NCBI GenBank assembly: GCA_963664405.1
Contig: OY761158.1
Location: 800,001-864,000 of the forward strand
Reading direction: 5' to 3'
Origin: Thermoanaerobaculia bacterium
GTDB taxonomy: Bacteria; Acidobacteriota; Thermoanaerobaculia; Multivoradales; Multivoraceae
Length of the DNA: 64,000 bases
Below the pieces are notes generated by a model, which searched no databases, was not told where the DNA came from, and worked only from the letters and a program-made list of their open reading frames with translations. Every line of letters begins with the position of its first letter. Positions within the stretch are counted from its first letter, which is position 1. Shown here in pieces: positions 38,072-49,697 of this stretch. The position numbers and the translations under genes are program-made.

Positions 38072-38882
38072 ACTGCTTGGAGCGACCGTGCTAGCCCTCT
38101 TCTTCTCCGCCCGTCAGGCCCAAGCTCTAGCTCAACGTCAGCTGGAGTTCGTTACCGGCATCACCCATGAGCTGCACACGCCACTCGCCGCGATCGCATC
38201 TGCGGCCGAGAACCTCAGCGACGGCGTAGTCCGCGATCAGGATCAGATCCGCCGCTACGGCCGGATGCTCAAGGGGGAGAGCGGGAGGCTGAGAAACATG
38301 GTCGGGCAAGTGTTGGATCTAGCAAGCACCGCCCGCGCCCCGGAAAGCATGCAGCCACGAGCCCTGAATGTCGTGACGGTCCTAGAATCGGTCCTCGAAG
38401 AGCACGACTGGACCCTGAGCGAAGGCGCCTTCACGATTGAGAAGAACTTCGAGGAAGGCCTTCCTGCGGCTCTCGTCGACCCCGATGCGTTTCATCGTGC
38501 CCTGCACAACGTAGTCGGCAACGCCATAAAGTACGGCGGCAGGCGGGAGAAGTGGGTTGGCCTGAAAGTCGACCGCGAAGCGGCCGGTCGAGAGGGCCGG
38601 CTCTGCATACGGGTGCAGGATCGAGGGCCGGGGATCCCCCGCACCGAGCAGCGGCGAATCTTCGACCCCTTCTACCGCGGTACCGCCGTTGCAGCGGGCC
38701 ACATCCACGGCACCGGCCTCGGCCTGGCGGTCGCCCGCCGCCTCCTGGAGGCCAATGGGGGCAGCCTCGAGCTCGAGCTGAGCGAGCGCGGCAGGGGCTC
38801 GACTTTCGTTGTTCGAGTACCTCAGGCACCCGACACGGTCCCGCAAGAGGAGAAGATCGAAGATGAAGCATCCTCCGTCTGA
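38072..38882 (+). pseudogene. Sensor histidine kinase, 3' part (HisKA + HATPase)
   Basis: ITHELHTPL H-box, NAIKY, DRGPGI, FDPFYRG, GTGLGL. Confidence 0.9.
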
Positions 38883-39588
38883 CCCCAAGGAGCCGCTAGC
38901 ACAGAGTCCGCGCCGCATCTTGGTGGTCGAGGACGAGGTCAGTCTGATTCTGACCCTCGGCGACAGGCTGCGGAGCGAGGGCTACGAAGTCGAGGCCGTC
39001 GAGGACGGAATCGAAGGCTGGGAACGGGCCCGTACCGGTGACTTCGATCTCATCCTGCTCGACGTCGCCTTGCCTGGGCGCAGCGGGCTCGACGTCTGCC
39101 GCGATCTGCGCCAGGAAGGCGTGGGAACTCCCATCTTGATGCTGACTGCACGGACACAGCTTACCGACAAGGTAGTCGGCCTCAAGATAGGAGCCGACGA
39201 CTACCTCACCAAGCCTTTCGACATGATCGAGCTGCTGGCGCGAGTCGAAGCCCTACTGAGACGCACGGGCCGGCCCCTGGGCGGACCCACGAGCTACGCC
39301 TTCGGCGACATCCGAATCGATACGCGCAGCGCCGAAGTCAAGAGAGGCGGAGAGACGGTGGAGATCTCGAGCCTGGAATTCAAGCTCCTCGCCTACATGG
39401 TCGAGAAACGTGGCGCCGTTCTCTCACGAGACGAGCTACTCGACAAGGTATGGGGCTACGACGCGACGCCGACGACACGAACCGTGGACGTGCACGTCGC
39501 CTCTCTGCGCCAGAAAATCGAGCCTACTCCCTCGCACCCGCGCTACATCCTCACCGTCCACGGCATGGGATACCGCTTCGCCGGCTAG
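38863..39588 (+). CDS. OmpR-family response regulator
   Basis: ILVVEDE, LLDVALPG, GADDYLTKPF, VWGY, RTVDVHV, GMGYRF. Confidence 0.95.
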   Translation: MKHPPSDPKEPLAQSPRRILVVEDEVSLILTLGDRLRSEGYEVEAVEDGIEGWERARTGDFDLILLDVALPGRSGLDVCRDLRQEGVGTPILMLTARTQLTDKVVGLKIGADDYLTKPFDMIELLARVEALLRRTGRPLGGPTSYAFGDIRIDTRSAEVKRGGETVEISSLEFKLLAYMVEKRGAVLSRDELLDKVWGYDATPTTRTVDVHVASLRQKIEPTPSHPRYILTVHGMGYRFAG

Positions 39589-39611: not shown

Positions 39612-40403
39612 TCAGAAGCCGGGGTCGTCGGCCCTGTTTTCTGGACTGACTACCGGCACGAACTCGGCGGCGACGAGGGCGCGAAGCTTGCGCCCGAGAT
39701 CTTTGCGGTCGTCGCTCACCGCAGTCTGATCCGAGAAACGTACTGTCGCCTCGAAACGGGATATGCCGATGAGCTGCCAACCGTGGGGGAAGAACGGGGC
39801 ATCACCCCACCAGCAGACTCCGAGATGGGCGGGAATCTCGCCCGCCGGGGTGCGGTAGCCAATCGCGGCGGCGTGAACCGGCTGCGTCTTGCTCACCGGA
39901 AAGGCCAGCAAGCTACTACGGAAGGGAGCGACCACATCCCCTTGTGTACTCGTGCCTTCGCCAAAGAGAACGATACCGAAACCACGGTCTAGCACGTCCG
40001 CGACCAGCGAGTTGACGCGCACGATATCACGGCGCAGCGCGCGGTCGATGAAGATTGTGCCGGCGGCACGGCACAACCAACCAAAAAAGGGCCAGCTCCG
40101 AATCTCGAGCTTGCCGATGAAGTAGGCCTCCACGCAGGAGCCCAGAACCAAAACATCGACGTAGCTGAGGTGGTTGGACACCAAGAAAAAGGGAGCAACC
40201 GGAGGCGTGCCCTCGACTGTCAGTCGCCCTCCCAGAACGCGCAGAGAGGCCCGGGCCCAGTGGCGAAATAGAAAGTTTCGCGCTCGCCTTCGCAGATCCG
40301 CGAACGGCTGCAACAAGACCTGAGCTATCACCATCAAGCTGAAGCTGATGACGTTTACAAACAACAGTAGGAGAAGCCGAAGGGGCTTTCGAAGCGAGCG
40401 CAC
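39612..40403 (-). CDS. Lysophospholipid/lyso-aminolipid acyltransferase (PlsC/OlsA-like)
   Basis: NHLSYVD, FIDR, FGEGTS, CWWGD; start GTG 40403 or CTG 40421 (coupled to the upstream stop). Confidence 0.88.
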   Translation of the reverse strand: MRSLRKPLRLLLLLFVNVISFSLMVIAQVLLQPFADLRRRARNFLFRHWARASLRVLGGRLTVEGTPPVAPFFLVSNHLSYVDVLVLGSCVEAYFIGKLEIRSWPFFGWLCRAAGTIFIDRALRRDIVRVNSLVADVLDRGFGIVLFGEGTSTQGDVVAPFRSSLLAFPVSKTQPVHAAAIGYRTPAGEIPAHLGVCWWGDAPFFPHGWQLIGISRFEATVRFSDQTAVSDDRKDLGRKLRALVAAEFVPVVSPENRADDPGF

Positions 40404-40417
40404 GTCGTTGTGAGAGA

Positions 40418-41209
40418 TCAGTTGAAAAACAGTCGATAGGTTCGCGGGTCGAGAGACTCTGAATCTAGCATCACGAAGTAGTCGATGGTCTTGAACTCTC
40501 GGTCGATTGCCGGAGGAGCGCAGACCAACCCGCCGTAACGAAGATAGGTGGCGAAGAGTTGAGGAAGCTCGACCGAGGGCTGCGACTCGACGTCGACGGC
40601 CGCACACTCGCACGCAACGGCCGACCGAGGCTGCAGCGACAAATTCGGATGCAGCTTACCTTGCTCTCCAAGCTGACGGTAGAGCCGAAGACCCTTGCAA
40701 GGATCTTGGGAAGTGAGCGAGCAGCAGCCGAATAAGTAGCGCTTATCGAAAGCTTGAAGATACCTCGCCAGGCCCCTCCACAACAGAAACAGGACCTGTC
40801 GATTGCGGTGTTCCAACGCAATGCAAGCTCGGCCCACTTCGACCGCCTTGCAGAGCATCTCATCAGGGAGATCCTCGAGACCGAACTCACCCGCGGAATA
40901 GAAGGCGCCTACCTCCCCCGCCATCTCCAAGGTCTGCATACGGTAGGTGCCGATCACTGTCGACGTCGTCCGATCTTCCACCAGCAGGTGGTGGCAAACG
41001 TTGTCGAAACCGTCTTCATCACGCTCGGTCGCAAAAGAGGTATCCAGTCCCTCGCCCAGCTCCAAGTTGAAGACTCTGAAGCGAAGATGCTGGATCTCAT
41101 CCAGCTCGTCTCTGCTGCGTACGAAGCGCAACCGATAGCGCCCCTGCTCGAGTTCCACGCTCGGGGCTGGGAGCAAGGCGGAAACAGTCTGTCCTACGGC
41201 TTCGGTCAC
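40418..41209 (-). CDS. GNAT N-acyltransferase, OlsB-like (N-acyl amino acid synthase)
   Basis: LRFRVFNLELGEG, DEDGFD..CHHL, GTYRM, FYSAGEF, EVGRACI, LFGCCS, PPAIDREFKTID. Confidence 0.88.
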   Translation of the reverse strand: MTEAVGQTVSALLPAPSVELEQGRYRLRFVRSRDELDEIQHLRFRVFNLELGEGLDTSFATERDEDGFDNVCHHLLVEDRTTSTVIGTYRMQTLEMAGEVGAFYSAGEFGLEDLPDEMLCKAVEVGRACIALEHRNRQVLFLLWRGLARYLQAFDKRYLFGCCSLTSQDPCKGLRLYRQLGEQGKLHPNLSLQPRSAVACECAAVDVESQPSVELPQLFATYLRYGGLVCAPPAIDREFKTIDYFVMLDSESLDPRTYRLFFN

Positions 41210-41227: not shown

Positions 41228-41992
41228 TCAATTCGGTTGCAAAGCGATGTGCTCAAGCTCCGCCTGGAAGATGCGTAGGTCCCCCTGGCGATGGATACGC
41301 CCGCGAAGACGTACCGGTTTCGCGACCCAATCTAGGATCTCTCGGCCCGGAGCCGCTCCTCGAGCATCTTGGAGGAGAAAAATGACGCTCTCACCATCGC
41401 TATTCTCGGCGATAAAGAGAGGCGGTATGCCGCCGCTGATGCAACGCACTGAACAAGAGCGATGGGGCTTGCCTCGGCCCGGCTTCATGACCCCGCTGTA
41501 GCATTTGCTGTCGAGGATTTCGCCCACTAGCTGATACACCCCAAGATCCTCTTCCAACGCGGCATCGACCCTCCCGGCACCCAGATCCATCAGTGAGCCG
41601 GGCTCGATCTCCAGAGTCGCAACCGCGTCACTATAAGCGAGGGCTCCGGCAAGTGACACCCTTCTGCCGTCGAGCCCGCCAACGACAGCCCCAGCGCCGT
41701 GCTTTCCAAAAGTACCGAGAAGAAACGAAGAATGAGCCGACGCCCCTTCGGCCGCAGCCCCGGGGCGATCCACGAGGAGGCGAGGGTAGGGCGCCTCGAG
41801 CAGCGTTCCCGTCCACTCGCGATACTCTCCGTATTCGAAAACAGCGGGAGCGAAAGCACTCTCTCGCGAGATCAAGAGCGAGGCAAGCGCGACGCCGCCG
41901 ACCACCAGACCGAGGGCACAGCGGCGCATCAACCGACCGATGCCTGGAGGCACGTCGAGATAGCCGACGAAGAACTCAGGCTCGGGCTTCAT
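41228..41992 (-). CDS. Hypothetical membrane-anchored protein with Cys/His motif
   Basis: EFFVGYL, one TM helix, GEILDSKCYSGVMKPG..KPHRSCSVRCISGGIPP. Confidence 0.75.
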   Translation of the reverse strand: MKPEPEFFVGYLDVPPGIGRLMRRCALGLVVGGVALASLLISRESAFAPAVFEYGEYREWTGTLLEAPYPRLLVDRPGAAAEGASAHSSFLLGTFGKHGAGAVVGGLDGRRVSLAGALAYSDAVATLEIEPGSLMDLGAGRVDAALEEDLGVYQLVGEILDSKCYSGVMKPGRGKPHRSCSVRCISGGIPPLFIAENSDGESVIFLLQDARGAAPGREILDWVAKPVRLRGRIHRQGDLRIFQAELEHIALQPN

Positions 41993-42005
41993 GGCCCCCC
42001 TCCGC

Positions 42006-43043
42006 TCATACGATCGCAGGCTCCACGTGAGTGCCGGCTGGATTGGGCTGAGGGTGGATCCAAACGCTGCCCTCCTTCACCTTGACCCGAAAGGTCGGAA
42101 TCTTCTCAGTGAAGGGCGGCGGTGAGGCGCCTGTCTCGGGAATGTACTGGTAGCCGTGCCACGGACAGGTCACGCAACCGTCAACGATCTTGCCCTCGCC
42201 GAGGGGACCATTCTGATGCTGGCAGACATTGGAGATTGCAGACAGCTTGCCGTCATAGCGAAAGAGCGCCACTCTCTCTCCGGCCAGGCAAAAGATGCGG
42301 GCTCTATCTTCCGGGACTTCCAGCGGGGTGCAGACCGCTACATACCCCTCCTCGTCGGCGGATGAGATCCCGACCGCACGGTCGCGCCGTCGTTCGCCCA
42401 GAGCTGCCACGAGATGGAGACCGAACACCCAGACCACTCCCAAACCCAGCACCCCCGCCAACACCGGATCGACCTCCATCTGAAGGACGCCGAGGGCTAC
42501 ATGTACTACGAGCAAGCTGTATGCGACATAGACCCCCATATGCAGGGCCTTCCACATCGGCGCGGTCAGGTTGGCGAGCCAGAAGTCGTGACTGGTGGCG
42601 GCCATCAGGAAGAGAATCGTGAGAGCCGCAAGCCCGAGCACCTGAAACGGGAATTGGGCCAGCGAGCCCCAGTCGCCATTGCTGGTGAGAACGCTGAGAA
42701 GGGGGTTGATGTCGCCAACAGCGTGGAACTGGACCATCGAGAAGAGGCCGTGGGCCAAGCCGACGAGAAACATGGTGACGCCGAGATGTCGGCGGTTGTA
42801 GAGCAGCGGGAGAAAACGCGGATCGAGCCGGCTCAGTGGGCCAATCGACAAGATGATGTGGAGGAGCAGGAAGGAGCAGGTGCCCAGAGCGCGGATGAGG
42901 GTCGTCTCGAGCGTCCCGTTAGGTCGCAGCAGAATGCTGAAAACCACAAAGGCGACGAGGTACACAAGCACTCCCCCGAGCAGCACTTGGTCATAGCGCT
43001 TCTTCCATGGGGTCCAGCCAACGCCCCTGTAGCTGACGCTCAT
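42006..43043 (-). CDS. Ferric-reductase-like (MsrQ-type heme b) membrane domain fused to C-terminal Rieske [2Fe-2S]
   Basis: YNRRHLGV, AATSHDFW, WKALH..VY, then CQHQNGPL...CPWHGY; ATG at 43043 overlaps the upstream stop (ATGA). Confidence 0.88.
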   Translation of the reverse strand: MSVSYRGVGWTPWKKRYDQVLLGGVLVYLVAFVVFSILLRPNGTLETTLIRALGTCSFLLLHIILSIGPLSRLDPRFLPLLYNRRHLGVTMFLVGLAHGLFSMVQFHAVGDINPLLSVLTSNGDWGSLAQFPFQVLGLAALTILFLMAATSHDFWLANLTAPMWKALHMGVYVAYSLLVVHVALGVLQMEVDPVLAGVLGLGVVWVFGLHLVAALGERRRDRAVGISSADEEGYVAVCTPLEVPEDRARIFCLAGERVALFRYDGKLSAISNVCQHQNGPLGEGKIVDGCVTCPWHGYQYIPETGASPPPFTEKIPTFRVKVKEGSVWIHPQPNPAGTHVEPAIV

Positions 43044-43501
43044 CCAGCGCCTCCGTCGTCGGACAGCAGCTGGGCACGCCCGAGAACGAGACCATGGCCA
43101 AGGCTGAAAAGAAGAAGCTCGTCTCCAGGAGCGCAACCTCCAGGGAGCGCGAATCGGCGGCGCTCCCCCGGCCGGATGGCGCCGAGGGCCCAGGCGCCAG
43201 TCGGCAAAGACTCTCCCGTCGACGAGCGAGCACAATAGAGAAGCATCTCCGGCGAAACCAGGTCAGGAGAGACTTCGACCGTGACCACAGCCGCCGGCGT
43301 CTCCTCCCACCAGCCCACAACTCCCGATATTGACCAAGCCAGAGGACGGGCGGAGACCTGAGCAGGTGGCGTGAGAAGGCCATCGAGGTCGGCCGCCGGT
43401 ATCGGTGTCCTGGCCCCCAGAGCGAACCCATAGAGAACGGCGACTCCGCAGCCAAGCGTGGCCACCAAGACGCCATGAAGTCTGCGCAGGGGCCGGATCA
43501 C
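43040..43501 (-). CDS. Hypothetical membrane-anchored protein
   Basis: (M)IRPLRRLHGVLVATL...LLLFSLGHG; GTG start overlaps the upstream TGA and its stop overlaps the downstream ATG. Confidence 0.65.
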   Translation of the reverse strand: MIRPLRRLHGVLVATLGCGVAVLYGFALGARTPIPAADLDGLLTPPAQVSARPLAWSISGVVGWWEETPAAVVTVEVSPDLVSPEMLLYCARSSTGESLPTGAWALGAIRPGERRRFALPGGCAPGDELLLFSLGHGLVLGRAQLLSDDGGAG

Positions 43502-43749
43502 CGCCGCACCCGGCCGCGATGGGGGGTCCACTCGGCAGGAGGCCCCTGTCGCCGAATCCAGCGAGCCAGCATCAAGGGCCACAAAGCCACGACTCCTGGC
43601 ACGATGAGGAGCCGAAAGCCCCAGGTGCCTTCGACTGCGCTGGGGTCGATGCGCTTCACCCCACGGGCCACGAAAGGCACAGCGAAGAGAAGGCCGAGCG
43701 CCGAATAAATGCCGACGACCAGCACCAACAGCTCGGGCAAGGTCTTCAC
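43498..43749 (-). CDS. Small two-TM hypothetical protein
   Basis: YSALGLLFAVPF...IDP...GFRLLIVPG..ALWPL; first gene of a coupled operon. Confidence 0.7.
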   Translation of the reverse strand: MKTLPELLVLVVGIYSALGLLFAVPFVARGVKRIDPSAVEGTWGFRLLIVPGVVALWPLMLARWIRRQGPPAEWTPHRGRVRR

Positions 43750-43889
43750 AGAGATCCCAAGCTAGCACAGGCTCGTTGCTCTAGCCGGGAGGCCGTGCTA
43801 GCTTTCGTGTCTGCACAACCGGGACAATCGAAACACAACCGCGCGCGAGAACGCCGTCGACTCCCGGGGCTGCTAAGGGGGTAGGAACA

Positions 43890-45503
43890 ATGCGGAAACA
43901 GAACGTAGCTGTCTGGAGTGAGCTCCCGGATCGCGAGCCGGCACACGCCCTGGTGGAGAACGTCGACCTCGTGGTGGTCCGTTTCGACGACCAGGTCTCG
44001 GTGCTCTATGGGCGTTGCCTGCATCGCGGCGCTCTTCTCGCCGACGGCAGCATCGTCGGAGACGACCTCGTCTGCGGCGTCCACGGTTGGGACTTTCGAT
44101 ACGACACCGGGGTGAGCGCCTACAACCACCGAGAGGTGCTGAACAAGTTCAATGCCTGGGTCGAAGATGGAGCGGTGTGGGTGGATGCGGACGAGATCGC
44201 GGACTGGCAGCGCGAGAACCCGCAGGCCTACGAGCGCGACAGCTACCAGGGTAACTACGCCGACCTCCATGGAACTCCGCAGGAGCCACACACCGGAGTG
44301 ATCCGCGATCTGGCCAACGATGGTCTCTCCAAGGTCGGTCACCATGGGCCGGTTGCCGCGATGGGAGTGCCGCGCCAGGAGCTACCGTCATGGGATCAGA
44401 TTCAATTCGTTACCGGTCAGCTCGCCACCCTGCCCCAGCTCGACGACACCGAAGTCGGATCCGAGCTCGTGATCGGACCCGACGCCAAGAAGCCGCTGCG
44501 TCTGGAGCTCCCTATCTTCGTCTCGGATATGAGTTTTGGCGCCCTTTCGTTCGAAGCCAAGGTGGCGCTCTCCAAGGGCTCAGAGCTGGCCGGCACCGGC
44601 ATCTGCTCGGGAGAAGGCGGCATGCTGCCGGAAGAGCAGGAGGCCTGTAGTCGATACTTCTACGAGCTCGCATCCGCGCGCTTCGGCTACTCCATGGAGA
44701 AAGTGAAACGGGTCCAAGCCTTCCACTTCAAGGGTGGTCAGGGAGCCAAGACCGGCACCGGGGGCCATCTCCCGGGCGCGAAGGTCATAGGCAGGATCGC
44801 CGAAGTCCGCGGGCTCGAAGAGGGGCAATCGGCGGTCTCTCCTCCGCGCTTCCCCGACTGGGACCACGAAGACGACTTCCGCGCCTTCGCCGAAGAGGTG
44901 CGAGAGGCGACCGGCGGCATCCCGATCGGATTCAAACTGTCGGCGCAGCACATCGAAGACGACATCGACGCAGCGCTCCGCATCGGCGTCGACTACATCA
45001 TTCTCGACGGTCGTGGAGGCGGCACTGGCGCTGCCCCACTGCTCTTTCGCGACAACATCTCGGTGCCCACGCTCGCCGCCCTCGCTCGCGCCCGCCGCCA
45101 CCTCGACTGCCTGGGGCGGCGCGAGATCACTCTTATCGTTACCGGCGGCCTGCGAACACCCGCAGACTTCGCCAAAGCCATGGCTCTCGGAGCCGATGGA
45201 GTTGCAGTCTCCAACGCGGCTCTCCAGGCCATCGGTTGCCTCGGTATGCGTGCTTGTCACACCAATAACTGCCCGGTAGGCATCGCTACCCAGCAACCCC
45301 ATTTGCGGGCCCGCCTGCCGGTCGACGAAGCGGCTGAGCGACTGGCGCGTTTCTTTGGAGCTACAGTGGATCTGATGAAGGTTCTGGCTCGCGCCTGCGG
45401 CCACACGCATCTCAACCAGCTGCGCAGCCACGACCTGGTGACCTGGGACCGTGACGTGGCCTATCTCACCGGGGTGACCTACGCGGGAGCAACGCCACTA
45501 TGA
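43890..45503 (+). CDS. Rieske [2Fe-2S] fused to FMN-binding glutamate-synthase-like domain
   Basis: CLHRG...CGVHGW; SDMSFGALS, SGEGG, GQGAKTGTGGHLPG, DGRGGGTGA, C-x5-C-x4-C (CLGMRACHTNNC) [3Fe-4S] motif. Confidence 0.9.
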   Translation: MRKQNVAVWSELPDREPAHALVENVDLVVVRFDDQVSVLYGRCLHRGALLADGSIVGDDLVCGVHGWDFRYDTGVSAYNHREVLNKFNAWVEDGAVWVDADEIADWQRENPQAYERDSYQGNYADLHGTPQEPHTGVIRDLANDGLSKVGHHGPVAAMGVPRQELPSWDQIQFVTGQLATLPQLDDTEVGSELVIGPDAKKPLRLELPIFVSDMSFGALSFEAKVALSKGSELAGTGICSGEGGMLPEEQEACSRYFYELASARFGYSMEKVKRVQAFHFKGGQGAKTGTGGHLPGAKVIGRIAEVRGLEEGQSAVSPPRFPDWDHEDDFRAFAEEVREATGGIPIGFKLSAQHIEDDIDAALRIGVDYIILDGRGGGTGAAPLLFRDNISVPTLAALARARRHLDCLGRREITLIVTGGLRTPADFAKAMALGADGVAVSNAALQAIGCLGMRACHTNNCPVGIATQQPHLRARLPVDEAAERLARFFGATVDLMKVLARACGHTHLNQLRSHDLVTWDRDVAYLTGVTYAGATPL

Positions 45504-45519
45504 GCAGCGGAGCACGATC

Positions 45520-47469
45520 ATGAGCAACACGACCGACGTCGTATGGCACCGCGTTCTCGCTCCCGACGAGCTTCCGGAGGGGCGCGTTCGCGCCGTCGAC
45601 GCCGCCGGCACCAGTCTGGCGATCACTCACTACGAAGGTACCTACTCGGCCCTCGCCAATGCCTGCCCGCACCAGGGCGGGCCCCTCGGCGAAGGCACTA
45701 TCGAGAACGGCTGGCTGCGCTGCCCGTGGCACGGATGGGACTTTCATCCCTGCACCGGGAAGCCCCCGGGCGGCTACGACGACGGAGTCGCGACCTGTCC
45801 GGTCGAGGCTCGGGACGACGGAATCTATGTCGGCCTCGATCCACAAGCGGCCGCTCACCAGCCGACCGTTTCCGATGTCATGGTGGAGACCATGGTCAAC
45901 TGGGGAGTGACCCACGTCTTCGGAATGGTTGGCCACTCCAACCTCGGCCTCGCCGACGCGATCCGGCGCCAAGAGGAAGCAGGCAAGCTAAAGTTCATCG
46001 GCATTCGTCACGAGGGGGCGGCCTCCTTCGCCGCCTCGGCCTACGCCAAGCTGACGGGGCGCCCGGCCGCCTGCTTTTCGATCGCCGGCCCCGGCGCGAC
46101 CAATCTGCTCACCGGGCTGTGGGACGCCAAGGTGGATCGTGCTCCGATCCTCGCTCTCACCGGACAGGTCGACACTCAGGTGCTCGGGCCCGGCGCCTTC
46201 CAGGAAGTCGATCTCTCGGCCGCCTTCTCGAGCGTCGCCGCATGGAGTCAGACCGTGCTCTCTACCAGTAAGCACGCCGAGCTCATGACCCTGGCCTTGA
46301 AGCACGCCACATTGCGCCGCGACGTCTCCCATCTGATCTTTCCCGACGAGGTCCAAACGCTCCCGTTAGAGGGGGCGTCCGCCTCCGGTCCGACCGGGCG
46401 AGTACCCAACCTCGAAGTCGCCCCGCCCGAGGAGTCTCTCGGGCAGGCGGTCGAGCTCTTGGAGAAGGCGCAGCGACCGCTGATCATCGTCGGCCACGGT
46501 GCTCGCTTCGAAATGGACGGCATCCTCGCTCTCGCCGAGCGCCTCCAATGCCCCGTCGTCACCACCTTCAAGGGCAAGGGAATGGTCTCAGACCATCATC
46601 CTCTGGGCTGCGGCGTCCTCGGCCGCTCCGGCACGCCAATCGCGAGCTGGTTCATGAACGAAGCGGACCTTCTATTGGTGCTTGGCGCCTCGTTCTCGAA
46701 CCACACCGGCATCACCGACAAGAAACCGACCATCCAGGTGGACTATGACCCGTTGGCGCTGGGTAAGTTCCATGCCGTGGATGTCCCGGTGCTTGGCGAG
46801 ATAGGCGTCACCTGTCGCCAGCTCTCCGATCGTCTGCCGGAAGGCCTCGCCGCGCTCGATCTACGCGACGAGATCGCCGAGCGCTGGGCTTTGTGGCGTG
46901 CCGAGAAGACGAAGCGGGAGGGTGAAGATCGGGGGCTGGGAGTCTCGTCGGCGAGTCTCTTCGCGGCGCTCAATCGTCAGCTGCCCGAAGACGCGGTCAT
47001 CGCCGTCGATGTCGGCAACAACACCTACTCCTTCGGGCGTTACTTCGAGTGTGCTCGTCAATCGGTGTTGATGTCGGGCTATCTCGGCTCCATCGGCTTC
47101 GGATTCCCGGCCGCCATGGGCGCCTGGGCCGCAGCGCCCGATCGCCCGATCGTCAGCATCTCGGGTGACGGCGGCTTTGGCCAGTACATGGCCGAGCTCA
47201 ACACCGCGGTCAAATACGAGATGAATCTGACCCACATCCTCTTGAACAACTCCCAGTTGGGAAAAATCTCGAAAGAGCAGCGCTCAGGCGCGTTCGAAGT
47301 CTGGCAGACCTCCCTGAGCAACCCCGACTTCTCTCGCTACGCCGAGAACTGCGGCGCCCTCGGCATCCGAGTCACCGACAAGGCCGAGCTCGACAGCGCT
47401 CTCGAGCGGGCTCTGGCCCACGAAGGCCCCGCCCTGGTCGAGATCATCACCGACGCCGAGCTCGTCTAG
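45520..47469 (+). CDS. Rieske [2Fe-2S] fused to ThDP-dependent enzyme (pyruvate oxidase/acetolactate synthase family)
   Basis: CPHQGGPL...CPWHGW; IRHEGAASF, GPGATN, FQE, GDGG...LLNN ThDP motif. Confidence 0.9.
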   Translation: MSNTTDVVWHRVLAPDELPEGRVRAVDAAGTSLAITHYEGTYSALANACPHQGGPLGEGTIENGWLRCPWHGWDFHPCTGKPPGGYDDGVATCPVEARDDGIYVGLDPQAAAHQPTVSDVMVETMVNWGVTHVFGMVGHSNLGLADAIRRQEEAGKLKFIGIRHEGAASFAASAYAKLTGRPAACFSIAGPGATNLLTGLWDAKVDRAPILALTGQVDTQVLGPGAFQEVDLSAAFSSVAAWSQTVLSTSKHAELMTLALKHATLRRDVSHLIFPDEVQTLPLEGASASGPTGRVPNLEVAPPEESLGQAVELLEKAQRPLIIVGHGARFEMDGILALAERLQCPVVTTFKGKGMVSDHHPLGCGVLGRSGTPIASWFMNEADLLLVLGASFSNHTGITDKKPTIQVDYDPLALGKFHAVDVPVLGEIGVTCRQLSDRLPEGLAALDLRDEIAERWALWRAEKTKREGEDRGLGVSSASLFAALNRQLPEDAVIAVDVGNNTYSFGRYFECARQSVLMSGYLGSIGFGFPAAMGAWAAAPDRPIVSISGDGGFGQYMAELNTAVKYEMNLTHILLNNSQLGKISKEQRSGAFEVWQTSLSNPDFSRYAENCGALGIRVTDKAELDSALERALAHEGPALVEIITDAELV

Positions 47470-47960: not shown

Positions 47961-49391
47961 ATGAAAGATCTCATGGCCATGACCCTCACCGCCGTGGTGC
48001 TTCTCGCCTCGAGCGCACACGCGCAGGAGAAGCCAAACATCGTCCTCGTTTTCATGGACAACTTCGGTTGGGGGGAGCCCGGCTTCAACGGCGGCGGGAT
48101 CATTCGCGGCGCGGCGACGCCACGGCTCGACCAGCTGGCCAGCGAGGGCCTGCGCTTGACCAACTTCAACGTCGAAGCCCAATGTACGCCGTCTCGCTCG
48201 GCAATCTTGACCGGCCGTTACGCGATCCGCAGCGGTAATGGAACCGCCCCCCTTGGCGACGGTGTGTACGGTCTGGTGCAGTGGGAGGTCACGATGGCAG
48301 AGATGCTCTCGGACGCCGGCTACAACACCGCTATGTTCGGGAAGTGGCACCTGGGACGCACCGAGGGCAGGTTCCCGACCGACCAGGGTTTCGATGAATG
48401 GTACGGAATCCAGAACTCCACCGACGAGTCGGCCTACCCCGCGCTCGAGGGATTCTCGGACAGCGGAGTGGCAGAGACCTTCGTCCTGGAAGCACGGAGG
48501 GGTGAAACGCCGCGGAGGGTGCGCCCGTGGAACTTGGAGTATCGCCCGCTCATCGATGGCGACCTGACCGACAAGGCGATCGACTTCATGCAGCGTCAGT
48601 CGAAGAGCGAGAAGCCTTTCTTCCTCTACCTTCCCTACACTGCGACCCACTACCCGACGCGCCCGCACCCGGACTTCGTAGGCACCACAGGCAATGGGAC
48701 CTGGGCGGATCTCCTGCACCAGATCGACACCTACAATGGGAGGTTACTGGATGAGATCGAGGACCTGGGTATCCGCGACAACACCCTCTTTATCTTCACG
48801 GCCGACAACGGGCCGGAGGCGCCGCCACCCGGAACTAACACACTGACAGTCGATACTCCCACCCCGGGATCGGCCGGACCTTGGCGCGGCACCCTGTTCA
48901 CCGGTTTCGAAGCCAGCCTGAGGGTTCCCTTCGCCATCCGCTGGCCTGGAAAGATCCCGCCTGGAGCCAGCAATGAAATCGTTCACGAGATGGATCTCTT
49001 CCCCACACTCGCGCGAATTGTGGGTGGAAAGGTGCCGGAGGACCGCATCATCGACGGGGTAGACCAGACCGATTTCTTCCTCGGCAAACAGCAGAAGTCC
49101 AACCGTGAGGGCGTTATTGTCTACATGGGCGACGAGATTTTTGGGGTCAAGTGGCGCAACTGGAAAGTGAACTTCAAAGAGCTCGACACGGTCTTCGGTG
49201 AGACCAAGGAGTACGGAATGCCGCGGGTCTACAACCTTCTCTCCGACCCGCGCGAAAGCGTGAACGTTCTCTTTCCTAATACCTGGGTGCCCAAGGCGGC
49301 TCTGGGGCAACTGGGAGAGCATGTGGCCTCGTTGAAGGAGTACCCACCCATCCCCACCGGCGCGCCGGACCCCTACGAGCCACCCAAGTGA
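47961..49391 (+). CDS. Arylsulfatase (formylglycine-dependent)
   Basis: Signal peptide, KPNIV, CTPSRSAILTGR (CxPxR), GKWHLG, DNG. Confidence 0.94.
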   Translation: MKDLMAMTLTAVVLLASSAHAQEKPNIVLVFMDNFGWGEPGFNGGGIIRGAATPRLDQLASEGLRLTNFNVEAQCTPSRSAILTGRYAIRSGNGTAPLGDGVYGLVQWEVTMAEMLSDAGYNTAMFGKWHLGRTEGRFPTDQGFDEWYGIQNSTDESAYPALEGFSDSGVAETFVLEARRGETPRRVRPWNLEYRPLIDGDLTDKAIDFMQRQSKSEKPFFLYLPYTATHYPTRPHPDFVGTTGNGTWADLLHQIDTYNGRLLDEIEDLGIRDNTLFIFTADNGPEAPPPGTNTLTVDTPTPGSAGPWRGTLFTGFEASLRVPFAIRWPGKIPPGASNEIVHEMDLFPTLARIVGGKVPEDRIIDGVDQTDFFLGKQQKSNREGVIVYMGDEIFGVKWRNWKVNFKELDTVFGETKEYGMPRVYNLLSDPRESVNVLFPNTWVPKAALGQLGEHVASLKEYPPIPTGAPDPYEPPK

Positions 49392-49420: not shown

Positions 49421-49697
49421 GGTTCCGGATGCGCCGTCCTCGGCGCCATGTAATCAGAAGCGGAGGAAATGATAACCATCATTTCCGTAGATTCCGGATG
49501 CGCCATCCGCGGCGCCATGTAATCAGAACCGGAGGAAATGATAACCATCATTTCCGTAGGTTCCGGATGCGCCATCCGCGGCGCCATGTAATCAGAACCG
49601 GAGGAAATGATAACCATCATTTCCGTAGGTTCCGGATGCGCCGTCCTCGGCGCCATGTTATCTAGCCGCAGGAAATGATAGCGATCATTTCCGTAGG
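49421..49697 (-). repeat. Tandem array of two-hairpin repeat (4 units, 69-bp period), opposite orientation to the 33.3-kb array
   Basis: GCGCC(GTCCTC/ATCCGC)GGCGC at 49431, 49500, 49569, 49638; GGAAATGAT-N4-ATCATTTCC at 49465, 49534, 49603, 49671. Confidence 0.93.

Follow-up and report, generated by a model that had tools for sequence, protein, structure and literature searches.

What does a locus do in which three different redox proteins each carry a fused Rieske [2Fe-2S] domain, and where would their electrons go? Such a locus lies at positions 41228–47469 of a 64,000-nucleotide stretch of DNA from a Thermoanaerobaculia bacterium of the phylum Acidobacteriota (assembly GCA_963664405.1, contig OY761158.1, positions 800,001 to 864,000), which we refer to as the window. 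A first-pass annotation had described here two divergent operons with six genes, three of them Rieske fusions with intact motifs, and had read them as a dedicated electron-transfer chain. Using Pfam and curated NCBIfam models for domain calls, we find all six genes in this divergent layout, and Pfam assigns a Rieske domain to each of the three fusions, whose cluster ligands are conserved in relatives. The genes form a set that is conserved across phyla and widespread: two soluble, cytoplasmic enzymes, one related to glutamate synthase and the other to pyruvate oxidase, and a membrane cassette encoded on the opposite strand. The observation itself is confirmed, and its interpretation is supported in part, short of the chain being dedicated.

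Results

The rightward operon opens with a glutamate synthase (GltS)-like protein of 537 residues (43890–45503, + strand), in which Pfam identifies a Rieske domain (residues 5–74, E = 1.4e-11) followed by the flavin mononucleotide (FMN)/[3Fe-4S] domain of glutamate synthases (Glu_synthase, PF01645; residues 194–504, E = 5.5e-90). With no transmembrane (TM) segment, the protein is assigned to the cytoplasm. Pfam detects neither an amidotransferase (Ntn) domain nor a GXGXG domain in it, and no amidotransferase in the scanned neighboring genes either, in agreement with the earlier reading that the enzyme lacks these partners. Of 81 homologous open reading frames (ORFs), 80 retain the Rieske ligands C43/H45/C62/H65 and all 81 retain the 3Fe-4S cysteines C450/C456/C461 (C-x5-C-x4-CP), and 230 of the 537 columns are at least 95% identical. 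At least 8000 significant homologs exist, and the 120 listed all combine Rieske and Glu_synthase domains (74–100% identical); the Rieske fusion, which had been taken as unusual, is therefore not rare. The window's genome also encodes a canonical GltB in a 1529-residue frame. Some sources name homologs of the GltS-like protein “methylamine-glutamate N-methyltransferase subunit C” or “glutamate synthase-related protein”.

The second gene of this operon starts 17 nt downstream on the same strand, as judged from the ORF list (45520–47469, +), and encodes a 649-residue protein in which a Rieske domain (E = 9.5e-18) is joined to the three domains of thiamine diphosphate (ThDP) enzymes (TPP_enzyme_N, 5.5e-34; TPP_enzyme_M, 1.1e-33; TPP_enzyme_C, 4.3e-37). 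The closest solved chains are Escherichia coli PoxB (3eya, E = 1.7e-71) and the Lactobacillus plantarum pyruvate oxidase POX (6.7e-65); the alignment to PoxB covers PoxB residues 3–528 of 572 and ends at query residue 645 of 649. Among NCBIfam models, the top match is PRK08611 (pyruvate oxidase) at 417 bits, where the cut-off is 742, while PRK09124 reaches 309 bits with a cut-off of 792. On these sequence matches, the protein belongs with the PoxB/POX-like ThDP enzymes, but lies below all equivalog cut-offs. Of 27 aligned ThDP ORFs, 24 retain the Rieske ligands C49/H51/C68/H71, and the remaining three are paralogs of 544–549 residues without a Rieske domain. A single long homolog joining the GltS-like and ThDP enzymes was found (P0241, 1195 residues); it was rejected as a Rosetta-stone fusion and read as a frameshifted read-through of adjacent genes, because a stretch of ~150 residues rich in Arg, Pro, and Ala lies between the two enzyme parts.

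The leftward operon encodes the membrane cassette, a self-contained unit of a 2-TM protein, a ferric-reductase-domain (FRD) protein with a fused Rieske domain, and a protein with two OB folds and a Cys3His site. At its core is the FRD-Rieske protein (42006–43043, − strand; 345 residues from the MSVSY start), in which Pfam recognizes Ferric_reduct (PF01794, E = 1.2e-11) and a C-terminal Rieske domain (5e-15). All 27 FRD-Rieske proteins share the paired histidines H86/H98 and H168/H181, together with H152 and H210 and the cluster ligands C274/H276/C293/H296; the pairing is as expected for two b hemes, which the protein is predicted to bind. Five segments exceed the hydropathy threshold, and the third helix (residues 86–107) was read from the sequence. 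Positive-inside counts predict an N-in orientation, with a basic stretch after TM6 and both termini in the cytoplasm. Given six TM helices with both ends cytoplasmic, the Rieske domain would therefore face the cytoplasm. A complex prediction for the GltS-like and FRD-Rieske proteins returned “no answer” (score 0.00), which counts neither for nor against binding.

The first gene of the cassette encodes an 83-residue protein with two hydrophobic segments and a basic C-terminal tail (43498–43749, −). Its gene neighbors that for the FRD protein in 12 of the 13 cassette loci and in all 14 further loci that we fetched, in each of which the cassette is intact, and its Atlas look-alikes are all called “hypothetical protein”. 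Between the two lies a gene for a 153-residue N-anchored protein with one TM segment (43040–43501, −), which has a GTG start and overlaps each adjoining gene by 4 nt at its start and stop. Among the loci searched, tblastn found this protein only in the window and in two others (L001 and L009, 30–32% identity), and we regard it as a lineage-specific accessory gene. Neither of these proteins, nor the 254-residue protein described next, matches a Pfam or NCBIfam family.

The last gene of the operon (41228–41992, −) encodes this 254-residue protein, with an N-terminal anchor and two predicted periplasmic OB folds. An AlphaFold2 model built from 19 homologs (mean pLDDT 87.9, pTM 0.77) displays an anchor helix and two OB barrels (residues 50–140 and 149–254). 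Residues C164, M169, H177, C180, and C184 are invariant in 19 of 19 homologs, giving the pattern C164...H177-x2-C180-x3-C184, and these Cys3His(+Met) residues are located on a helical insertion within the second barrel. Hydropathy and the positive-inside rule place the N-terminus inside and the bulk of the protein outside. The suggestion that the locus provides a periplasmic metal site is thus plausible, given an N-in anchor and invariant Cys3His and Met residues. Fold searches returned generic OB proteins only (SSB, PriB, and potempin; Z ≤6.9, 78 aligned residues, root mean square deviation 3.0), the best Foldseek match having an E of 8e-4 and a TM-score of 0.21, and such generic matches yield no fold-based function. 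The family has at least 1467 homologs; among the 120 listed, every given name is “hypothetical protein” and Pfam assigns no domain to any of them; the nearest Atlas cluster is automatically named DUF5666. In two loci (L063 and L094), Pfam shows the OB protein as a C-terminal extension of the FRD-Rieske protein, and in two others (L083 and L084) the same arrangement appears as one long ORF; in these fused proteins, the anchor helix of the OB part comes after the Rieske domain. These fusions tie the two proteins together, and the predicted topology agrees with them.

Are the two operons linked outside the window? We compared gene neighborhoods in species-representative genomes, using the best 80 of at least 600 stretches, which are 68–77% identical to the GltS-like query. 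These loci span Acidobacteriota, Planctomycetota, Gemmatimonadota, Poribacteria, Nitrospinota, Nitrospirota, Chloroflexota, Cyanobacteriota, and Alpha- and Gammaproteobacteria, and for many of them the record label is that of a marine or sponge metagenome-assembled genome (MAG). The ThDP gene lies near the GltS-like gene in 28 of the 80 loci and directly downstream of it (<300 nt, same strand) in 16 of these 28. Thirteen loci, from several phyla and in four orientations, have the cassette no more than 10 kb from the GltS-like gene. Both partners are present in eight loci, belonging to a Planctomycetota MAG, Nitrospirales, and four alpha- or gammaproteobacterial families. When only the 38 loci with at least 8 kb on each side are counted, 12 have the ThDP gene, 10 the cassette, 6 both, and 22 neither. 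A Na+/H+ exchanger gene and a gene for a DUF5996 protein also recur, each near the GltS-like gene in 12 loci; we do not count them as part of the set.

Whole-genome counts point the same way. Among 251 genomes of the window's phylum, 28 carry the GltS-like gene, 19 the cassette, and 18 the ThDP gene. By our reading of the lists by eye, the ThDP and GltS-like genes overlap in 15 genomes and the cassette and GltS-like gene in 8, each against ~2 expected by chance, although related genomes are not independent and kinship inflates these counts. All eight genomes with the cassette and the GltS-like gene also carry the ThDP gene. The pair of GltS-like and ThDP genes occurs without the cassette in 7 of the 15 phylum genomes that have it, and again in genome G257. 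A second sample comprised 301 genomes of the class to which an alphaproteobacterial locus (L064) belongs; 14 of them have the GltS-like gene, accompanied by the ThDP gene in 9, the cassette in 7, and both in 6, and three genomes hold all three genes within 7 kb, again in other gene orders. All three genes are likewise adjacent in the cultivable Roseibium denhamense JCM 10543 (L038). On two alphaproteobacterial chromosomes (L064 and L079), the GltS-like gene directly follows the cassette, and the genome has no ThDP gene. The association is therefore far above chance but not obligate. The first-pass annotation had held that the two operons are linked, an idea that would fall if they rarely co-occurred; instead, they co-occur in both genome samples and re-cluster in several phyla.

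The Rieske domain on the enzymes appears to have substitutes. Several genomes of the phylum match the GltS-like query only from about residue 127 onward (66–71% identity), and the N-termini of their proteins contain two zf-CDGSH domains in place of the Rieske domain (L095, 5992–7515, −; L097, 5986–7794, −). Some ThDP orthologs have a CDGSH-Fer4_19-CDGSH arrangement added before the Rieske domain (L099, 4998–7652, −; 884 residues). The two genomes checked for both CDGSH features (G002 and G039) have no membrane cassette. Because CDGSH replaces Rieske in relatives, the 2Fe-2S domain looks like an exchangeable electron plug. A further fusion, of a Rieske domain and an NADPH-dependent FMN reductase (FMN_red; 381 residues; L083, 13740–14885, +), is encoded 4 kb from a cassette with neither a GltS-like nor a ThDP gene as partner. 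This fusion is present in 9 of the 251 phylum genomes; four of the nine have the cassette (19 of 251 overall) and none the GltS-like gene, these being small numbers. Its position near a cassette fits a picture of plug-in cytoplasmic donors.

Intergenic region and flanking genes

The two operons diverge from a 140-bp intergenic region (43750–43889), in which a repeat scan located a 16-nt inverted repeat (arms 43759–43774 and 43789–43804, 14 nt between them, 88% complementary). Neither the repeat nor any other common motif is kept in the divergent intergenic regions of four relatives (L001, L004, L009, and L037). A shared operator for both operons was accordingly rejected, since the repeat is not conserved and the five regions have no motif in common. 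Scans of the region for sigma-70 promoters and terminators gave background levels only. Two Rfam matches outside the intergenic region were taken as chance: skipping-rope, inside the OB-protein gene (27.1 bits against a gathering score of 36.7), and Burkholderiales-2 (E = 0.82).

Beyond the OB-protein gene, 18 nt away on the same strand, lies an OlsB-like GNAT gene (Acetyltransf_5; 40418–41209, −), followed on that strand by an OlsA-like PlsC-type acyltransferase gene (39612–40613, −). The same adjacency to the cassette is found in L001, L004, L009, L081, L082, L091, and L092, and in L083 the two are one fused protein of 753 residues; it was seen in no proteobacterial locus among those examined. 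It may represent lineage synteny or a link of the cassette to aminolipid synthesis. Upstream of the acyltransferase genes, translations suggest the C-terminal part of a histidine kinase and an OmpR-type response regulator (38088–39588, +). On the other side, a secreted sulfatase (PF00884, E = 2e-52; 47961–49391, +) directly follows the ThDP gene and occurs near the module again in L056 (52% identical), not in other loci. A 69-bp tandem repeat of 4.0 copies with 93% matches (49421–49697) separates the sulfatase gene from a 695-residue ORF, and accounts for the repetitive ORFs listed there on both strands. Elsewhere in the window's genome (G000:C1) there are three nearly identical small Rieske ferredoxin genes (394514–394768, 3756802–3757071, and 3983582–3983848), one of which has an in-frame TAG in its tblastn match.

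Discussion

Domain content, conserved ligands, predicted topology, gene linkage, and the exchange of 2Fe-2S plugs define the parts of this system; how they would work together, we infer as follows. We tentatively prefer, at somewhat less than even chances, a scheme in which both enzymes are dehydrogenases that pass electrons via their Rieske domains to the membrane module and outward. The GltS-like enzyme would oxidize an amino acid or amine to an imine and 2-oxoacid at its FMN, and the ThDP enzyme would oxidatively decarboxylate a 2-oxoacid to an acid and CO2. Electrons would exit via the 3Fe-4S cluster or the flavin to the fused Rieske domains, which would hand them to the Rieske domain of the FRD protein. 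From there, they would cross the membrane over the two hemes to the periplasmic side, where either the OB/Cys3His protein or a quinone may receive them. The built-in one-electron carrier of each soluble enzyme would stand in for a separate ferredoxin.

Outward flow is favored because there are precedents for it: electrons move from inside to outside in NOX and Fre-MsrQ, and arsenite oxidase provides an electron exit from a 3Fe-4S cluster to a Rieske center. It is also favored because the alignment of the ThDP protein to PoxB stops ~44 residues before the PoxB C-terminus, and because the GltS-like gene pairs with the cassette even where the ThDP gene is missing. Taken further, the enzymes may be plug-in dehydrogenases of a respiratory type: varied flavoenzymes (the GltS-like FMN/3Fe-4S enzyme, the PoxB-like ThDP enzyme and, in other genomes, the FMN reductase) would dock, by a fused His-ligated 2Fe-2S connector, on the cytoplasmic Rieske domain of a NOX-like two-heme wire. 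Electrons from amino acids and 2-oxoacids would then bypass NAD(P)H and free ferredoxin and be driven straight out to a periplasmic Cys3His protein that represents a new family. We regard this extended picture as possible but doubtful.

A number of observations weigh against the outward scheme. The cassette lacks the GltS-like gene in 11 of 19 phylum genomes, the GltS-like gene has neither partner in 13 of 28, and the ThDP gene lacks the GltS-like gene in 3 of 18. A Poribacteria MAG and a Nitrospinaceae MAG, both complete chromosomes, carry the GltS-like gene and neither of its partners, and in the closest relatives, from the window's own family (G196 and G236), the three genes are megabases apart. 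Every module thus also occurs without the others, and the proposal of a “dedicated” chain is not borne out. In a quick tree of the Rieske domains (114 columns with many open forks; 13 ThDP rows that passed the length filter, and only 23 GltS-like rows, taken from loci that also carry the ThDP gene or the cassette), the GltS, ThDP, and FRD types fall into three separate groups, with a long branch leading to the GltS type. The three domains are thus not closely related to one another; this tree lends no support to their having arisen recently from one source, and the Rieske fusions would therefore be old and independent. To our knowledge, every characterized member of the GltS FMN-domain family works reductively, which favors the opposite direction of flow. 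High-potential Rieske proteins carry an extra disulfide cysteine pair; the sequences of the three window domains have no such pair, they are probably of low potential, and they would therefore be poor sinks for amino-acid oxidation. Finally, the intergenic region has no Rfam match, and neither a riboswitch nor a conserved operator was found in it.

If the GltS-like enzyme instead worked reductively, the two soluble enzymes could form a redox-neutral pair, in which the ThDP enzyme would oxidize a 2-oxoacid, for example pyruvate, and its two electrons would move directly between the Rieske domains into the GltS-like enzyme. Running in the direction usual for GltS, the latter would reductively aminate a 2-oxoacid with free ammonia or reduce another imine, and the cassette would be a separate route or an overflow. 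Such a pair would be a GltS-like system independent of NAD(P)H and ferredoxin. It is favored by the link between the GltS-like and ThDP genes, the tightest of all, with the GltS-like gene in 15 of the 18 phylum genomes that carry the ThDP gene, direct downstream placement in 16 of 28 loci, a gap of 17 nt in the window, and persistence of the pair where the cassette is missing (7 of 15 phylum genomes, and G257). A fused 2Fe-2S domain would also be a natural built-in donor, GltS receiving its electrons at the 3Fe-4S cluster, and the QGAK..GG.LPG, GGTGA.P, and cluster motifs of the synthase site align with solved GltS. However, the GltS-like gene occurs without the ThDP gene in 13 of 28 phylum genomes and 5 of 14 genomes of the second sample, and on the L064 and L079 chromosomes it directly follows the cassette in a genome without the ThDP gene. 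The enzyme also has no amidotransferase partner in a genome that retains canonical GltB, and we know of no precedent for direct Rieske-to-Rieske transfer between two enzymes. We consider the redox-neutral pair unlikely.

A cassette acting on its own, exporting reducing power to the periplasm from any cytoplasmic donor, as a Cu/Fe reductase or in MsrPQ-like repair, would need no tie to the enzymes, their adjacency then reflecting shared regulation or co-transfer. The cassette is intact in all 14 further loci, 11 of the 19 genomes that carry it have no GltS-like gene, and its only other recurrent neighbors are the acyltransferase genes of the ornithine-lipid type in the window's lineage. FRD proteins elsewhere are ferric or cupric reductases or MsrQ, and a Cu(I) site would fit the invariant Cys, His, and Met residues. 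This account is also rather improbable: the cassette adjoins the GltS-like gene in 13 of the best 80 loci, in four orientations and several phyla, and again in three genomes of the second sample, and all eight phylum genomes with the cassette and the GltS-like gene have the ThDP gene as well. If there were no functional tie, such recurrent adjacency would be hard to account for. That the locus is an already characterized pathway under another name is very improbable, since matches to NCBIfam equivalogs are all far below cut-off and our literature search returned architecture catalogs only. It brought up no characterized pathway of this architecture, as the first-pass annotation had supposed, and no functional study of the three fusion proteins (subscription journals and supplementary files lay outside the search). 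Two of the architectures, FRD + Rieske and CDGSH + GltS-FMN, already appear in print as catalog entries.

The outward dehydrogenase scheme and its alternatives differ in what the locus would contribute. The GltS-like protein is 68–77% identical between Acidobacteriota, Planctomycetota, Poribacteria, Nitrospinota, Gemmatimonadota, Cyanobacteriota, and Proteobacteria, and conservation of this degree suggests an important reaction whose active site is under tight constraint, one that runs mostly in marine and sponge-associated bacteria and is absent from metabolic maps. Wiring of the enzymes to the transmembrane heme module would open a new path by which the central metabolism of amino acids and 2-oxoacids reaches the redox chemistry of the periplasm; mutual feeding between the two enzymes would instead amount to a new form of ammonia assimilation. 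Either result would supply functions for thousands of genes annotated as “glutamate synthase-related”, “thiamine pyrophosphate-binding”, or “hypothetical”, and would also explain the type 5 CDGSH proteins.

Comparison with known systems

The GltS-like enzyme resembles the alpha subunit of glutamate synthase (GltS/GOGAT; PDB codes 7mfm, 2vdc/1ea0, and 1llw) in its FMN barrel and C-x5-C-x4-CP [3Fe-4S] motif, and its QGAK..GG.LPG and GGTGA.P motifs align with the solved chains over ~300 residues (E = 7e-37 to 1e-32). In known GltS, electrons reach the 3Fe-4S cluster from ferredoxin or a beta subunit. The window protein differs in lacking the amidotransferase, central, and GXGXG domains, in its N-terminal Rieske domain, and in having no beta subunit gene nearby, and it scores 133.4 bits on the GltB model PRK11750 against a cut-off of 1047. 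A general account of glutamate synthase is given in PMC8097209. Closer in architecture are the type 5 CDGSH proteins, whose N-terminal His-ligated 2Fe-2S module sits on the same enzyme core, with an FMN part 66–71% identical; the window protein has a Rieske fold in place of the tandem CDGSH domains. The combination of tandem CDGSH and the GltS FMN domain is termed “type 5 CISD” by Lin et al. 2011 (PMC3174974), and this architecture is also mentioned by Sengupta et al. 2018 (PMC5859297).

The ThDP enzyme shares all three ThDP-enzyme domains with PoxB (PDB codes 3eya/3ey9) and Lactobacillus pyruvate oxidase. These are flavin-dependent oxidative decarboxylases that export electrons. The window enzyme differs by its added N-terminal Rieske domain and by having no counterpart of the last ~44 residues of PoxB, which we take to be the lipid- or membrane-binding peptide.

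The FRD-Rieske protein has the six-TM ferric-reductase domain and paired heme histidines of the superfamily that unites MsrQ (YedZ), bacterial NOX, and FRD proteins. In NOX, a cytoplasmic C-terminal redox domain feeds the hemes. Unlike MsrQ, the window protein scores 32 bits on NF003831 against a cut-off of 130, and the scanned cassette genes contain, by Pfam and NCBIfam, neither an MsrP-type molybdoenzyme nor an NADPH/FAD domain; in place of MsrP, the periplasmic partner here is a tandem-OB protein, together with the 2-TM protein, belonging to no described family. FRD + Rieske is bacterial architecture M4 in the survey of Zhang et al. 2013 (PMC3591440), with Rieske as an electron-transfer domain. 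As a working analogy only, the outward scheme recalls complex II with a di-heme anchor; there is no homology, and the link here would run via fused Rieske domains on separate proteins. In complex II, a soluble flavoenzyme and an Fe-S chain are joined to a two-heme membrane subunit. Judged by sequence, the parts of the locus belong to the PF01645, POX/PoxB-like ThDP, FRD, and Rieske families, yet fall outside GltB, PoxB, and MsrQ proper, and the whole is best described as a variant of known systems of iron-sulfur flavoenzymes and heme wires.

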